Positions 3,967 through 35,667 of a DNA stretch of 64,000 nt are shown one piece after another. The notes under the pieces are model-generated. The model worked only from the letters and a program-made list of their open reading frames with translations. It ran no database searches and had not been told where the DNA came from. The DNA comes from Escherichia coli (GTDB lineage: Bacteria; Pseudomonadota; Gammaproteobacteria; Enterobacterales; Enterobacteriaceae). The translations under genes and the position numbers were made by a program. Each line of letters opens with the position of its first letter. The stretch's first letter is position 1. Location: NCBI RefSeq assembly GCF_016026235.1, contig NZ_CP065613.1; one strand, given 5' to 3'.

Positions 3967-4239
3967 ATAGTGTGGCTTTTGTGAAAATCACACAGTGATC
4001 ACAAATTTTAAACAGAGCACAAAATGCTGCCTCGAAATGAGGGCGGGAAAATAAGGTTATCAGCCTTGTTTTCTCCCTCATTACTTGAAGGATATGAACC
4101 TAAAACCCTTTTTTATAAAGCATTTGTCCGAATTCGGACATAATCAAAAAGCTTAATTACGATCAATTTGATCTACATCTCTTTAACCAACAATATGTAA
4201 GATCTCAACTATCGCATCCGTGGATTAATTCAATTATAA

Positions 4240-6474
<2,235 letters not shown>

Positions 6475-28258: not shown

Positions 28259-29176
28259 ATGAATATTCGTGATCTTGAGTACCTGGTGGCATTGGCTGAA
28301 CACCGCCATTTTCGGCGTGCGGCAGATTCCTGCCACGTTAGCCAGCCGACGCTTAGCGGGCAAATTCGTAAGCTGGAAGATGAGCTGGGCGTGATGTTGC
28401 TGGAGCGGACCAGCCGTAAAGTGTTGTTCACCCAGGCGGGAATGCTGCTGGTGGATCAGGCGCGTACCGTGCTGCGTGAGGTGAAAGTCCTTAAAGAGAT
28501 GGCAAGCCAGCAGGGCGAGACGATGTCCGGACCGCTGCATATTGGTTTGATTCCCACGGTTGGACCGTACCTGCTACCGCATATTATCCCGATGCTGCAC
28601 CAGACCTTTCCAAAGCTGGAAATGTATCTGCATGAAGCACAGACCCACCAGTTACTGGCGCAACTGGACAGCGGCAAACTCGATTGCGTGATCCTCGCGC
28701 TGGTGAAAGAGAGCGAAGCATTCATTGAAGTGCCGTTGTTTGATGAGCCAATGTTGCTGGCTATCTATGAAGACCACCCGTGGGCGAACCGCGAATGCGT
28801 ACCGATGGCCGATCTGGCTGGGGAAAAACTGCTGATGCTGGAAGATGGTCACTGTTTGCGCGATCAGGCAATGGGTTTCTGTTTTGAAGCCGGGGCGGAT
28901 GAAGATACACACTTCCGCGCGACCAGCCTGGAAACTCTGCGCAACATGGTGGCGGCAGGTAGCGGGATCACTTTACTGCCTGCGCTGGCTGTGCCGCCGG
29001 AGCGCAAACGCGATGGGGTTGTTTATCTGCCGTGCATTAAGCCGGAACCACGCCGCACTATTGGCCTGGTTTATCGTCCTGGCTCACCGCTGCGCAGCCG
29101 CTATGAGCAGCTGGCAGAGGCCATCCGCGCAAGAATGGATGGCCATTTCGATAAAGTGTTAAAACAGGCGGTTTAA
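28259..29176 (+). CDS. oxyR: LysR-family hydrogen peroxide-responsive regulator
   Basis: ORF 28229..29176, trimmed to the ATG giving [10 protein letters not shown] and the 305 aa K-12 length. Confidence 0.95.
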
Positions 29177-30559
29177 ACCGTTTAACGCAGCTACCCGATA
29201 GGCTTCCGCCATCGTCGGGTAGTTAAAGGTGGTGTTGACGAAGTACTCAATAGTGTTGCCGCCACCTTTCTGTTCCATAATCGCCTGACCGATATGAATA
29301 ATCTCGGCAGCGCGCTCGCCAAAGCAGTGAATGCCCAGAATCTCTTTTGTTTCCCGATGGAACAAAATTTTCAGCGTGCCCACGTTCATGCCGACGATTT
29401 GTGCACGTGCCAGATGTTTGAACTGGGCGCGGCCCACTTCATATGGCACTTTCATCGCGGTCAGCTGCTGTTCGGTTTTGCCCACAGAGCTGATTTCCGG
29501 GATGGTGTAAATGCCTGTAGGGATATCTTCAATCAGATGCGCGGTGGCTTCGCCTTTTACCAGCGCCTGCGCGGCAATGCGCCCCTGGTCATAGGCCGCT
29601 GATGCCAGGCTCGGATAACCAATCACGTCGCCCACCGCGTAAACGTGCGGCTGTGCGGTCTGATACATGCTGTTGACCTTCAGCTGTCCGCGACTGTCAG
29701 TTTCCAGCCCAATGTTCTGTAACGCCAGCGAATCGGTATTACCGGTACGACCGTTGGCATAGAGCAGGCAGTCAGCTTTCAGTTTTTTACCCGACTTCAG
29801 ATGCATGATCACACCGTCGTCACAGCCTTCGATCTTCTCGTACTCTTCGTTGTGACGAATCACTACGCCACTGTTCCAGAAGTGATAGGAGAGAGAATCT
29901 GACATCTCTTGATCGAGAAATGCCAGCAGGCGATCGCGGGTGTTGATCAGATCCACTTTTACATCCATACCGCGGAAGATCGACGCATATTCACAGCCGA
30001 TCACTCCAGCACCATAGATAAGTACATGGCGCGGTTCGTGGTGCATGCTGAGAATTGAGTCGCTGTCGTAAATGCGTGGATGGGTGAAATCAACATCTGT
30101 TGGATGATATGGACGAGAGCCGCAGGCAATAACAAATTTTTCAGCGGTTAGTGTTTCAACGCTGCCGTCCGGGCAATCCAGCGCCAACGTATGCTCGTCA
30201 ACAAAGCGAGCGTTCCCCTGCAATATTTCACAGTGATTACGTTCGTAAAATCCCTGACGCATGCGCGTTTGTTGATTAATCACGTTATCGGCATGGTTAA
30301 GGATATCGGCAAAAGAAGAGCGGAGCAGTCGGGAATGGTCGCTGTATAGTGGGTTTTGATTGAATTCTATAATGCGGCTGACGGCGTGACGGAGAGCTTT
30401 CGACGGGATGGTGCCCCAGTGGGTGCAACCGCCGCCAACATTTTGATAACGCTCGATAACTGCGACGCGCGCACCTTGCTTAACTAGGCCCATTGCAGCG
30501 CCTTCGCCGCCGGGGCCGGAACCTATTACTATGGCATCGTAATCGTAGGAATGTGGCAT
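29159..30559 (-). CDS. sthA: Soluble pyridine nucleotide transhydrogenase
   Basis: 466 aa ORF with FAD-binding GSGPGG motif; convergent with oxyR and overlapping its 3' end. Confidence 0.95.
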
Positions 30560-30888
30560 GGTAGGGCTTACCTGTTCTTATACATAAAAGCAACAGAATG
30601 GTAACATTTTATCGCGGGTAAGCCAATTGATCCCCGTCATTAATCTGGCTATAGCGTGAGCGGCCTTTGCTTTGTCTGCCTCCTTCTTAACCCATTTATT
30701 CACTATTAATCGCTTTTTATTATGGCTGATAGTTTTATCTTGCCGAAGCGTGCTTTTTTGTTATTGTCTTTATGAAATCTTCTTATAAAACAAACATATA
30801 AATATTTTATATTGATGGGTTATTTGTATTTATACCATCAATAAAATCCGTTAATTAGCCTGTTTATAAGTGAATAAAGGAATAGCCG

Positions 30889-32055
30889 ATGATCGAACAC
30901 TATATTCGAGGGTTTGAGGAAGAACTGCGTGAGATCCGCCATCAGATCCACGAAAACCCGGAGCTGGGATTACAAGAATTTAAAACCAGTGCTTTGGTTG
31001 CGGAAAAGCTGCGTCAGTGGGGCTATGAAGTAGAGCAAGGACTGGCGACGACGGGGATAGTGGCCACGTTAAAAGTGGGCGACGGAGAGAAAAGTATTGG
31101 CCTGCGGGCGGATATGGATGCGCTGCCGATTTATGAAAATAGTGGCAAGCCCTGGGCCAGTAAACATCCTGGTTTAATGCACGCCTGCGGGCATGACGGG
31201 CATACCACCATACTGCTGGGGGCCGCGCGTTATTTTGCCGAAACCCGCCGTTTTAACGGCACGTTACGTCTTATCTTCCAGCCTGCGGAAGAGATGATTA
31301 ATGGCGGTGAGATCATGGTTAAAGAGGGGCTTTTTGATCATTTCCCCTGCGATGTCATTTTCGGCATGCATAACATGCCCGGTCTGCCGGTGGGTAAGTT
31401 TTATTTCCAGCCAGGGGCACTGATGGCGTCAATGGATCAGTTCCATATTACAGTTCGTGGTTGTGGCGGACACGGTGCGATCCCGCACAAAGCCATCGAT
31501 CCGGTGCTAGTTGCCGCACATATCACCACCGCATTACAAAGCATTGTGTCACGCAATGTCGATCCGCTGGAAGCGGCGGTAATTACCGTCGGCAGCATTG
31601 TTGCGGGTGAGGCGGCTAACGTCATTCCTGACAGTGCTGAGATGAAAATCAGCGTCCGCTCTCTTAGCCGCGATACCCGACAACTTCTTCTGACCCGTAT
31701 TCCTGCTCTGGCACAAGCCCAGGCTGCCAGCTTTGGCGCTACGGCTGAGGTTACGCATGTTAACGGTACACCAGTATTAGTAAATGACGAGGAGATGGCG
31801 CGCTTCGCCTGGCAGGTGGCGTGTAAAACGTTTGGTGAAGATCGGGCCGAGTTTGGCATCAAGCCTCTGATGGGCAGTGAAGATTTCTCTTTCATGCTGG
31901 AAGCCCAACCCAAAGGCGGTTTCCTGTTATTCGGTAATGGCGATGTCGGGGAAGGTTCCTGCATGGTGCATAACCCGGGTTACGACTTCAACGATGCAAG
32001 TCTGGTCCCGGCAAGCAGCTACTGGGGCGCACTGGTAGAAGCCTGGCTGCAATAA
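30889..32055 (+). CDS. M20D-family amidohydrolase (hippurate hydrolase / N-acyl-amino acid amidohydrolase-like)
   Basis: 388 aa ORF with aggaa RBS; HACGHDGH metal-binding motif and overall layout typical of M20D aminoacylases; no gene sits here in K-12 as I recall. Confidence 0.85.
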   Translation: MIEHYIRGFEEELREIRHQIHENPELGLQEFKTSALVAEKLRQWGYEVEQGLATTGIVATLKVGDGEKSIGLRADMDALPIYENSGKPWASKHPGLMHACGHDGHTTILLGAARYFAETRRFNGTLRLIFQPAEEMINGGEIMVKEGLFDHFPCDVIFGMHNMPGLPVGKFYFQPGALMASMDQFHITVRGCGGHGAIPHKAIDPVLVAAHITTALQSIVSRNVDPLEAAVITVGSIVAGEAANVIPDSAEMKISVRSLSRDTRQLLLTRIPALAQAQAASFGATAEVTHVNGTPVLVNDEEMARFAWQVACKTFGEDRAEFGIKPLMGSEDFSFMLEAQPKGGFLLFGNGDVGEGSCMVHNPGYDFNDASLVPASSYWGALVEAWLQ

Positions 32056-32097
32056 ATAAAACAACACACAACAACACTTTTTGGCAAGGAACATGGA

Positions 32098-33414
32098 ATG
32101 ACGGCGATCGTAAATGAAACCGTGAGTGTGAAGAAAAAGCCCAGCGGCAGGCGGGTGATTTTTGCCTCGGCGTTTGGCAATGCGCTCGAATTTTTTGATT
32201 TTGGCGTTTACAACTTTTTTGTGGTCTATATCAGTACACTTTTCTTCCCACCCAGCGCTGATCACAATGTCGCGCTGTTACTGGCATTTGCAACGTTTGG
32301 CGTGAGTTTTTTTATGCGCCCGCTTGGTGGAATTATCGTCGGGGCCTGGGCCGATCGTTTCGGACGCAAACCCGCGATGGTGTTCACTATTGCCCTGATG
32401 AGCCTCGGCACGTTGATGATTGGCATTGCGCCGACGTATGCGACGGCGGGCTATTGGGGAACGGCAACTCTGGTACTTGCTCGTTTGATTCAGGGTGTTG
32501 CAGCAGGCGGTGAAGTTGGGGCTTCAATGTCGCTACTGGTGGAGTCAGCTCCGGCAAATCGTCGCGGTTTTTACAGCAGTTGGTCACTGGCGACTCAAGG
32601 CCTGGCAACAACTTTTGGAGGTGTTGTCGCTTTAGGTTTAAGTGCATGGCTGCCCTTTGCGACCGGTTCAGAAACCGTCATGGCTGAATGGGGCTGGCGT
32701 GTGCCGTTTTTTATTGGCGTGTTATTAGCGCCTGTCGGCTGTTGGTTGCGTTTGAGTCTGGAAAATGATGTTCCTGAGCCAGCACATAATAAGAAGGCCG
32801 CAGCCAGCGAAAGCGCCTTCTCCTTACTTATGCAACATAAAGCGACTATCGCTAACGGTATCTTGCTCGCTATTGGTAGCACGGTCGCAACCTATATCTC
32901 CCTCTTTTATTACGGTACATGGGCGGCGAAGTATTTAGGAATGAACCAAAACTATTCTCATGCAGCGATGTTACTGGCGGGCGTTATTACGTTTGTGGGT
33001 GCGCTGCTGGTGGGGATGTTGTGCGATTCGGTCGGGCGTAAAAAGCTGATTTTAATCTCCCGTGTGATGGTGCTGATCTGTAGCTGGCCGTCATTCTGGC
33101 TGTTGGTGAATTACCCAAGCCCTGGCATGTTGCTGACGGTGGTTTTCGTGATGGTCAGCTTTACCACGCTTGGCGGTGTGCCAGTGATGTTGTTGATCTC
33201 TGAACTGTTGCCGAAACGGATTCGGGCATTGGGTTTTGCGCTGGTTTATAGCATTGGTGTGGCAATCTTTGGCGGTTTTGCTCAATATTTCGCTACGCAA
33301 TCCATCGTGTTGCTGGATAGTTTGACGGCTCCGGCGTGGTATCTGGGTGGAGGCACGTTGCTGTCGATGTTGGCGTTGTTGTACGTAAAAGAACCGGCCA
33401 AAGAATTGCAGTAA
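32098..33414 (+). CDS. MFS transporter, metabolite:H+ symporter (MHS) family
   Basis: 438 aa hydrophobic ORF with the MHS signature [13 protein letters not shown] and ADRFGRK loop motif; 42 bp downstream of the amidohydrolase, same strand. Confidence 0.85.
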
Positions 33415-33463
33415 ATATGTTTTATTGCGTTACCGTTCATTCACAATACTGGAGCAATCCAGT

Positions 33464-34168
33464 ATGTTCATTCTCTGGTATAGTGCCAGCAGTACTTTTG
33501 GCAAGGATTCAGACATCGTGATGGGCGTAAGAGCGCAACAAAAAGAAAAAACCCGCCGTTCGCTGGTGGAAGCCGCATTTAGCCAATTAAGTGCTGAACG
33601 CAGCTTCGCCAGCCTGAGTTTGCGTGAAGTGGCGCGTGAAGCGGGCATTGCTCCCACCTCTTTTTATCGGCATTTCCGAGACGTAGACGAACTGGGTCTG
33701 ACCATGGTTGATGAGAGCGGTTTAATGCTACGCCAACTCATGCGCCAGGCGCGTCAGCGTATCGCCAAAGGCGGGAGTGTGATCCGCACCTCGGTCTCCA
33801 CATTTATGGAGTTCATCGGTAATAATCCTAACGCCTTCCGGTTATTATTGCGGGAACGCTCCGGCACCTCCGCTGCGTTTCGTGCCGCCGTTGCGCGTGA
33901 AATTCAGCACTTCATTGCGGAACTTGCGGACTATCTGGAACTCGAAAACCATATGCCGCGTGCGTTTACTGAAGCGCAAGCCGAAGCAATGGTGACAATT
34001 GTCTTCAGTGCGGGTGCCGAGGCGTTGGACGTCGGCGTTGAACAACGTCGGCAATTAGAAGAGCGACTGGTACTGCAACTGCGAATGATTTCGAAAGGGG
34101 CTTATTACTGGTATCGCCGTGAACAAGAGAAAACCGCAATTATTCCGGGAAATGTGAAGGACGAGTAA
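33464..34168 (+). CDS. fabR: TetR-family repressor of unsaturated fatty acid biosynthesis
   Basis: ORF 33425..34168; start set at the ATG giving MFILWYS (234 aa form); an alternative downstream start giving MGVRAQQ would make 215 aa. Confidence 0.88.
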
Positions 34169-34527
34169 TGAAACAAGCAAATCAAGATAGAGGTACGCTG
34201 CTGCTGGCGTTGGTTGCTGGCTTATCGATTAATGGTACTTTCGCAGCGCTGTTTAGCTCCATTGTGCCATTTTCTGTATTCCCGATTATTTCCCTGGTGC
34301 TGACGGTTTACTGCCTGCATCAACGTTATCTTAATCGCACTATGCCGGTAGGCTTGCCGGGTCTGGCAGCTGCCTGTTTTATTCTCGGCGTACTGCTGTA
34401 CAGCACGGTAGTTCGTGCGGAATATCCGGATATCGGCTCTAACTTCTTCCCGGCAGTACTGTCCGTCATTATGGTGTTCTGGATTGGCGCGAAGATGCGT
34501 AACCGTAAGCAGGAAGTTGCTGAGTAA
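34168..34527 (+). CDS. yijD: Inner membrane protein YijD
   Basis: 119 aa hydrophobic ORF; its ATG overlaps the fabR stop (taATGa). Confidence 0.88.
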
Positions 34528-34566
34528 TCGGTATCATGCCGGATGCTGGCGCATCCGGCATGGGTT

Positions 34567-35667
34567 TTACTTCGCGGTCAGTAATACGCCGCACTCCATA
34601 TGGTGCGTGTAGGGGAACTGATCAAACAGAGCCAGACGTTCGACCTTGTGCGTCTGGCTTAATGTTTCCAGATTCTTGCATAACGTTTCCGGATTGCAGG
34701 AGATATACAGAATACGTGGATACGCCTGCACCATTTTCTCGGTTTCACTGTCCAGACCGCTGCGCGGTGGGTCGACAAAAATGGTTTCGCACTGATAACT
34801 CTTTAAGTCGATCCCTTGCAGGCGGTTAAACTCGCGCACACCATTCATCGCCTGAGTAAATTCTTCTGCCGCCATACGAATAATTTGTACGTTATCAATA
34901 TGGTTAGCTGCGATGTTGTATTGCGCAGCAGCAACCGACGGCTTAGCGATTTCGGTGGCTAATACCCGATCAAAATTGCGCGCCAGCGCTAATGAAAAGT
35001 TACCGTTGCCGCAGTACAGCTCCAGTAAATCGCCTTTTGAGCCTTTGGTTACGTCCAGCGCCCATTCCAGCATCTGAATATTCATCGCCGCGTTCGGCTG
35101 GGTAAAGCTGTTTTCTACCTGACGGTAGATCATCTCTTTCCCTGCGACCGGCAGACGTTCATCGATGTAATCCTGATCCAGCTCGATTTTGGTTTTCGTT
35201 GCCCGACCAATCAGATGCACATTCAGATTCTGCGCGCGCAGTGCATCGCGCAGTGCTTCCGCTTCCTGACGCCACTCATCATCCAGCTTTTTATGGTACA
35301 GCAGGGAAACCACCGCCTGATTACTCAGCGTGGTGAGATAATCAATCTGGAACAACTTGTGGCGTAGAACGGGATTATTACGCACACCCGCAATCATCGC
35401 CGTCATCAACTGGTTGATGAGTTCACTGGCAGCGGGGAAGCTATCCACGCGGATACGGCTTTTGGTTTGTTGATCGAAAATGATGTGATACAGGTCATCG
35501 CCATCGTGCCAGATGCGGAACTCCGCACGCATCCGGTAATGACTGACCGGCGAGCGAAACACTTCCGGAACCAGGTCAGAAAACGGTGCCATCATACTTT
35601 GCAAACGTACCACTTTTTCGGCTAACTGCGCTTCATACTGTTCTGTTGGAAGGTGTTCGGGGGTCAT
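34567..35667 (-). CDS. trmA: tRNA (uracil54-C5)-methyltransferase
   Basis: 366 aa ORF, same length as K-12 TrmA. Confidence 0.93.

Follow-up and report, generated by a model that had tools for sequence, protein, structure and literature searches.

A spacer with a conserved predicted promoter separates an old, strain-variable M20-MFS islet from fabR in Escherichia coli

Extended -10 (TGn) sigma-70 promoters of Escherichia coli are the closest described counterparts of the element that precedes the fabR gene. As in those promoters, a perfect TGn abuts a -10 hexamer that matches at five of six positions (TGGTATAGT), the -35 is poor or absent, and the spacing of the Shine-Dalgarno (SD) sequence and the start codon fits a leader of about 27 nt. 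The fabR element is conserved across Enterobacterales, and it departs from plain extended -10 promoters in having a further conserved block about 30 bp upstream (33427-33446). The DNA that lies ahead of this promoter region resembles the islets of the O-island type known from O157 strains, in that O157:H7, B2 and further lineages carry a metabolic module of two genes that K-12 does not have. However, unlike recent O157 insertions, this island is also found in E. albertii and in cryptic Escherichia lineages, and its G+C content is host-like. It also differs from O-island-type segments in showing no mobility genes or direct repeats within the sequence examined and in that K-12 represents the derived (deleted) state.

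Operons with internal promoters offer another parallel, because here too co-directional genes are separated by a short gap free of a terminator, and the second unit has a predicted promoter of its own. However, the functions of the island and of fabR-yijD are unrelated, their evolutionary ages differ, and any co-transcription of the two is putative. A copy of the M20-MFS module itself is found in Limnobaculum zhutongyuii, with the same gene pair in the same order and an MFS protein that is 78% identical. That copy resides in a different neighbourhood and ends with a strong terminator composed of a 12-bp G+C-rich stem and U6 (-22.7 kcal/mol). Nothing comparable follows the Escherichia copy, where fabR promoter DNA begins about 12 bp past the MFS stop codon.

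The window analysed here is a stretch of 64,000 nucleotides from an E. coli genome (RefSeq assembly GCF_016026235.1, contig NZ_CP065613.1). The gene order around the junction is oxyR / sthA(-) / M20 aminoacylase / MFS symporter / fabR-yijD / trmA(-), and the coordinates of the relevant features are collected in Table 1. RefSeq names the product of the M20 gene 'M20 aminoacylase family protein', and its counterpart in O157:H7 Sakai is ECs_4892. The Sakai record labels ECs_4892 'abgA', which reflects family-level similarity only. The MFS gene was described in a first-pass annotation of this DNA as stopping at 33414, and a TAA codon at 33412-33414 indeed closes its ORF. FabR scores 413.6 bits against the NF008402 equivalog profile, for which the cut-off is 151, with profile positions 1-206 of 211 aligned. 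The fabR and yijD genes form one operon (PMC12282094). The terminator between yijD and the convergent trmA gene folds with -25.1 kcal/mol (z -4.7). A search of positions 30400-34800 for known RNA families yielded nothing credible, the one sub-threshold match having an E value of 0.43.

The junction itself (33250-33650) has 100% identity to O157:H7 strains. Across 30400-33700 (3.3 kb), the window and Sakai are separated by 65 mismatches, 57 of which are located in a 310-bp stretch of the MFS gene (32235-32544), where the differences mostly show 3-nt spacing. This stretch resembles a recombination patch whose source would be a divergent allele.

Table 1. Features of the sthA-trmA region in the window, with supporting evidence
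Feature	Position	Strand	Evidence or remark
oxyR		+	
sthA	29159-30559	-	
Escherichia-specific DNA replacing ~44 bp of ancestral sthA-fabR intergenic region	30630..33426	+	alignments: 20 other genera, 71 species
Segment in island-type E. coli, absent in K-12-type strains (unrelated 73-bp filler instead)	30679..33379	+	blastn, K-12 versus window
M20 aminoacylase / amidohydrolase gene, 388 aa	30889..32055	+	TIGR01891, E 3e-107
MFS metabolite:H+ symporter-family gene, 438 aa	32098..33414	+	TIGR00883, E 1e-96; Sakai ECs_4893
Last 35 nt of MFS ORF	33380..33414	+	verbatim upstream of fabR in K-12
Conserved block A, GCGTTACCGTTCATTCACAA, consensus GCGTAAACAATCATTCACAA	33427..33446	+	column conservation at least 80-99%, 71 species
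Weak hairpin/palindrome, ATACTGGAGCAATCCAGTAT	33446..33465	+	8-bp stem, 3 G-C pairs, GCAA loop
Conserved block B, TCTCTGGTATAGTGCCAG	33472..33489	+	predicted extended -10 sigma-70; column conservation 90-99%
Conserved ribosome-binding block C and true start	33500..33527	+	SD AAGGA 33503-33507; GTG 33518; ATG 33521
fabR, 216 aa, TetR-family repressor of fabA/fabB	33518..34168	+	NF008402, E 1.5e-124; RefSeq annotation
yijD	34168..34527	+	start overlaps fabR stop (TAATG)
Terminator between yijD and convergent trmA, strong, bidirectional-looking	34534..34563	.	13-bp stem, 8 G-C pairs

The distance between the MFS gene and fabR depends on the choice of start codon, and both candidate sites (ATG 33464, and GTG 33518 / ATG 33521) are present in the window. 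The more upstream site corresponds to an older, long annotation that is still used for Sakai, where ECs_4894 is given as 705 bp and 234 aa (NC_002695.2; collected locus L088, 10460-11164, equivalent to window positions 33464-34168). PGAP places the start at GTG 33518 to give a gene of 651 bp (K-12 W3110, FDAARGOS_943), and the alignment of FabR to its profile opens exactly at 33518, which is residue 32 of the TTG-ORF. For comparison, fabR loci were collected from 80 species. In this set, the displayed Enterobacteriaceae sequences have either GTG or ATG at 33518. By comparison, the segment from 33464 to 33517 varies in both length and sequence across the 80 species and is not coding-like, and ATG 33464 is not conserved. 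Translation of fabR begins at GTG 33518 (or ATG 33521), not at ATG 33464.

With the start at 33518, the gap between the MFS gene and fabR is 103 bp rather than 50 bp. The first-pass annotation correctly placed fabR behind the MFS gene on the same strand, but of the two starts that it named, 33464 does not stand, and the distance of about 50 bp that it reported rests on an over-long fabR ORF. The same gene is 18 codons too long in records such as that of O157:H7 Sakai, where the surplus codons represent the predicted promoter and leader. Thus, what seems to be a 50-bp operon-like junction is a 103-bp spacer that bears this promoter.

A 34-codon upstream ORF (33417-33521) starts 2 nt past the MFS stop, and its TGA overlaps the fabR ATG at 33521 (GTGATGG). 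We considered a chain of translational coupling that runs from the MFS stop (TAA 33412-14) to the ATG of the upstream ORF (33417) and from its stop (TGA 33519-21) to the fabR ATG, and rejected it. The chain probably arose by chance, because the upstream ORF, although present in E. coli, is interrupted by stop codons or a frameshift both in E. albertii and in a more distant contig from Logan.

Homology with 71 non-Escherichia Enterobacteriaceae species restarts at approximately 33427, and the DNA from this point onward is common to three architectures: that of other genera (in which the sthA-fabR spacer is about 196 bp), the K-12 type and the island type. Three conserved blocks can be recognized in this shared DNA. 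Block A contains a 10-mer that is found in 55 of the 80 species, and also holds a -35-like TTCACA at 33440-33445. It might act as an UP-like element, bind an activator, or supply the -35 for a weak second promoter. Block B includes the extended -10 element (33476-33484), with TG at 33476-33477 and TATAGT at 33479-33484, and 78 of the 80 species carry the pattern TGnTATA[GTA]T. Relative to the start codon, the element is located at -37 to -42 in 74 Enterobacteriaceae; in Yersinia/Serratia its position is -56. It therefore has the characteristics of a sigma-70 extended -10 promoter, namely a TGn that abuts a near-TATAAT hexamer and a position that is conserved relative to the gene start. We infer that it serves as the core promoter of fabR, with transcription predicted to start at about 33490-33492 and to produce a leader of about 27 nt. 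Block C, which reads GGAAGGATTCAG..ATCGTGATGGGCG in the alignment with the 71 non-Escherichia Enterobacteriaceae, carries the ribosome-binding site and the start codons. In the long fabR annotation, the extended -10 falls at codons 5-7.

A consensus promoter scan left the extended -10 unscored, its -35 being poor, and scored TTCACA-17-TATGTT instead. The -35 of this pair is conserved across species, whereas a -10 at that spacing is not, and we retain the pair as a possible weak second promoter. The 138 bp ahead of the fabR GTG are 100% identical in K-12, which has no island. A pFabR fragment from MG1655, whose bounds are not given, has been used as an always-ON, '100% positive' constitutive promoter in memory-circuit screens (PMC12405535), which lends coarse, independent support without placing the promoter inside the 103 bp. 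The literature searched contains no experimental transcription start for fabR, and the E. coli and EHEC transcriptome supplements within it have no entry on fabR, yijD or Z5521-Z5525. Autoregulation by FabR was also considered and dropped; the accessible portion of a Salmonella ChIP-chip list of FabR targets makes no mention of the fabR promoter.

The spacer has no credible predicted intrinsic terminator, in agreement with the first-pass annotation, which had noted no hairpin and U-tract between the two genes. A lenient scan of the gap flags two small hairpins, at 33446-33465 and 33475-33489. Terminator-like sites in the 4.2-kb region number 8, compared with 5.2 +/- 2.6 in shuffled sequences, and so are not above chance. 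The hairpin at 33446-33465 folds with -10.7 kcal/mol (z -3.3) and was scanned with the tail GTTCATTCTC, but no U run follows it, since its tail (GUUCAUUCUC) includes no run of at least three U nucleotides. A hairpin at 33408-33428 (-7.6 kcal/mol, z -2.9) likewise has no U run after it. No stable G+C-rich stem-loop is present between the MFS gene and fabR, the best value of -10.7 kcal/mol comparing with -25.1 kcal/mol for the yijD/trmA terminator and -22.7 kcal/mol for that of Limnobaculum.

Related island-bearing genomes also show neither conservation of nor compensation in the stem at 33446-33465. Most Escherichia carry T33447C in this stem, and in E. albertii an uncompensated mismatch breaks the hairpin, the region folding no better than shuffled sequences. 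Being weak and not conserved, the hairpin was rejected both as a terminator and as an operator. A crude test for a rut-like stretch (C-rich and G-poor, about 80 nt) found none in the 103-nt spacer, where the maximum C/G is 1.21 and C makes up 21%. Transcripts from the island promoter would thus meet their first credible terminator only at the yijD/trmA hairpin.

The occurrence of the M20-MFS pair varies among E. coli strains. It is found in 1505-1507 of 5426 complete E. coli genomes (about 28%), a 3.3-kb query across the pair being fully covered in 1505, and O157:H7 and LF82 are among the carriers. In every carrier in this set the MFS-fabR junction is intact. In E. coli genomes without the island, the query matches at its sthA and fabR ends only, and K-12 is among the strains that lack it. 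The island was also looked for in 75 fabR loci of other genera, including Citrobacter, Salmonella, Klebsiella, Enterobacter, Kluyvera, Yersinia and Serratia, and none of the 75 carries it. Where the start of sthA was found in other genera, it is located 192-215 bp upstream of fabR in most loci; in two loci of Pseudocitrobacter, which contain an inserted repeat, the distance is 323 bp. Thus, an island between sthA and fabR is seen only in Escherichia loci, which represent E. coli, E. albertii and two further Escherichia lineages. The Logan contig has the order sthA/M20/MFS/fabR as well, with an MFS protein that is 83% identical.

The coding sequences of the island have a G+C content of 51-53%, which equals that of the host, as would be expected if the acquisition is old. 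The island sequence examined showed neither mobility genes nor direct repeats. The Escherichia-specific DNA starts with 48 bp of left flank and an AT-rich leader, continues through the M20 and MFS genes, and extends about 12 bp past the MFS stop. The leader upstream of the M20 gene has only 28% G+C. It carries a palindrome, TATTGATGG-N16-CCATCAATA (30810-30843), that Escherichia loci conserve and at which a regulator of the island might bind as its operator; the island itself contains no regulator gene. In Escherichia sp. MOD1-EC7003 (L007, ~2243-2366), an ERIC-like repeat, recognized by eye, appears to have been inserted immediately ahead of the ribosome-binding site of the M20 gene. The Pseudocitrobacter loci L044 and L052 have a similar repeat in place of the distal sthA-fabR intergenic DNA, yet TGGTATAGT is kept there.

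The K-12 allele records part of the history of this locus. By blastn, the match between K-12 and the window ends at 30678 and resumes at 33380, and the latter breakpoint is inside the MFS ORF. Strains of the K-12 type retain 48 bp of the Escherichia-specific left flank and 47 bp of the right flank. The C-terminal tail of the MFS protein, VKEPAKELQ, is conserved in homologues at 78-83% identity, with counterparts such as FFVREPQRELR, LCVKEPRRELL and FFKDPKRLEE. Because the tail is a genuine feature of the family, the 35 nt kept by K-12 are a relic of a deleted island, and this remnant of the MFS gene identifies K-12 as a secondary deletion and thus the derived state.

The 73-bp filler that replaces 2.7 kb in K-12 (L001:1780-1852, between the equivalents of window positions 30678 and 33380) does not resemble the island significantly (score 24, with shuffles at 19.8 +/- 2.3 and a maximum of 28). 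It also has no match in the collected loci other than alleles of the K-12 type. One divergent allele of this type (L006) carries the filler at 89% identity, which indicates that the K-12-type allele is old. The sthA-fabR intergenic region of K-12 is a deletion scar and not the ancestral arrangement, a distinction that matters when K-12 is used as the reference for fabR or sthA regulation.

A dyad of the form TTGTGCT(T/C)-N13-15-(A/G)AGCACAA is conserved in the sthA-fabR intergenic region of other Enterobacteriaceae, whereas all Escherichia are without it, and in the window it is absent at 30630/33426. The half-sites in other genera read TTGTGCTT-N13-AAGCACAA. The dyad belongs to a conserved element, CCCAATTATCGTTGTGCTTTTTT-N-AAGCACAAAC, which in loci L008-L082 occupies roughly -135 to -80 relative to the start of fabR (for example L008:4866-4921). 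In the dyad alignment, 86% of cells are paired, and one position shows compensatory changes from T-A to C-G in six sequences. A regulator of sthA or fabR may bind at the dyad. The segment of about 44 bp that bears it is the one ancestral regulatory piece truly displaced by the island. The possibility raised in the first-pass annotation, displacement of the native fabR promoter, is not supported for the core promoter, but the insertion did remove this distal dyad.

These observations can be combined into an account that we consider quite likely as a whole, comprising an ancestral insertion, a deletion in K-12, a surviving fabR promoter and an unblocked spacer. An ancestor of Escherichia would have gained the module of M20 amidohydrolase and MFS symporter genes within the divergent sthA-fabR control region. 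The insertion presumably swapped out about 44 bp from the middle of this region, ended about 12 bp past the MFS stop, and brought no terminator with it. Strains of the K-12 type would later have lost 2.7 kb of the island, while its flanks stayed in place, and with them the final 35 nt of the MFS gene. The fabR-proximal part of the ancestral intergenic region, about 90 bp in length, would have survived intact and now form the 103-bp spacer. Transcription of fabR-yijD would depend mainly on its own extended -10 sigma-70 promoter, with a predicted start at about 33491, and transcripts from the island promoter probably continue through fabR-yijD to the yijD/trmA terminator. The anatomy, the conservation and the succession of evolutionary events are shown by the comparisons, whereas the activity of the conserved element as a promoter, the place of the transcription start and read-through itself are inferred. 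The junction is thus unremarkable, consisting of a spacer with a predicted promoter that follows an old islet of strain-dependent occurrence, and its significance would grow only if read-through from the island altered FabR dosage.

Two other locations for the source of fabR transcripts were put forward as possibilities by the first-pass annotation. One, taken to its full extent, holds that the island displaced the native fabR promoter, leaving fabR in carriers largely dependent on read-through from the island. A spacer without a credible terminator and the removal of the conserved distal dyad by the insertion would both suit such a scheme, but it is highly improbable given that blocks A, B and C, and with them the core promoter, the SD and the start, are all downstream of the island. 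Moreover, the comparison with K-12 that had been suggested runs contrary to displacement, since these elements and the entire 138 bp ahead of the GTG are the same in a strain that has no island, and the arrangement persists from E. albertii to E. coli with the blocks unchanged. The other proposal, which places the native promoter within the 3' end of the MFS gene, also has very little chance of being correct. On its face, the retention of the last 35 nt of the MFS ORF in K-12 could indicate selection for a promoter. However, these nucleotides code for the true C-terminus of the MFS protein, so that a scar left by the deletion is the better interpretation, and the scan scored no promoter-like site within 33380-33414. 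Other genera have fabR without this sequence, the shared DNA starting only about 12 bp past the MFS stop. We therefore continue to place the main fabR promoter in block B.

The fate of transcripts that leave the island is a separate matter. If the hairpin at 33446-33465, or that at 33408-33428, terminated them, fabR would be insulated from the island. Both hairpins are more stable than most shuffled versions, and the former has a GNRA-type loop (GCAA) and a T-rich tail. This form of insulation is nevertheless quite improbable, because their folding energies are far from the -22 to -25 kcal/mol of real terminators in the vicinity or in the homologous module, both lack a U run after the stem, and the number of terminator-like sites is at the level of chance. 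In addition, other Escherichia have uncompensated stem changes, and the 33446-33465 hairpin is lost in E. albertii. At the opposite extreme, read-through might be substantial and regulatory, such that the induced M20-MFS-fabR-yijD genes would act as an operon with an internal promoter (raising FabR) or would occlude that promoter (lowering FabR). The genes are co-directional, the 103-bp gap has neither a terminator nor a rut-like stretch, and the module terminator of Limnobaculum is missing in Escherichia. Furthermore, ECs4893, flagged 'O157', changed 2.09-fold at the growth transition in a microarray time course of Sakai (PMC2241611). However, fabR and yijD were not among the genes changed at least 2-fold on the same array, where ECs4892, ECs4894 (fabR) and ECs4895 are not listed (PMC2241611). 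The 28% G+C of the leader also suggests that the island may be poorly expressed in laboratory conditions. We regard regulatory read-through on this scale as somewhat unlikely. The array pattern weakly argues against strong coupling between the MFS gene and fabR, and is silent on basal read-through. Under the account preferred here, transcription from the island into fabR-yijD is structurally unobstructed, judging from the sequence, and it is possible that it occurs and would only add to the output of fabR's own promoter.

It is doubtful that induction of the island, presumably by an N-acyl amino acid or a related carboxylate, measurably alters the dosage of FabR and YijD, whether by read-through or by promoter occlusion. 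Hippurate and N-acyl or N-acetyl amino acids are candidate inducers or substrates. If it did, the island would constitute a lineage-specific link between a nutrient signal and the control of membrane unsaturated fatty acids, which K-12 would have lost with the deletion of the island. The island-bearing lineages affected would include O157:H7 and the B2 pathotypes. Loss of fabR function was strongly selected in the long-term evolution experiment (PMC4301190), and effects of FabR dosage are not implausible given that such losses are selected in some settings.

One E. coli genome in the collection has lost the gene altogether. In strain RM13322 (L083, NZ_CP050498.1; locus 4161-5268), the locus lacks fabR together with the 5' portion of yijD, and the order is sthA, about 1.1 kb of unannotated DNA, and a partial yijD pseudogene. 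This absence of fabR recalls the recurrent loss-of-function mutations of the long-term evolution experiment (PMC4301190).
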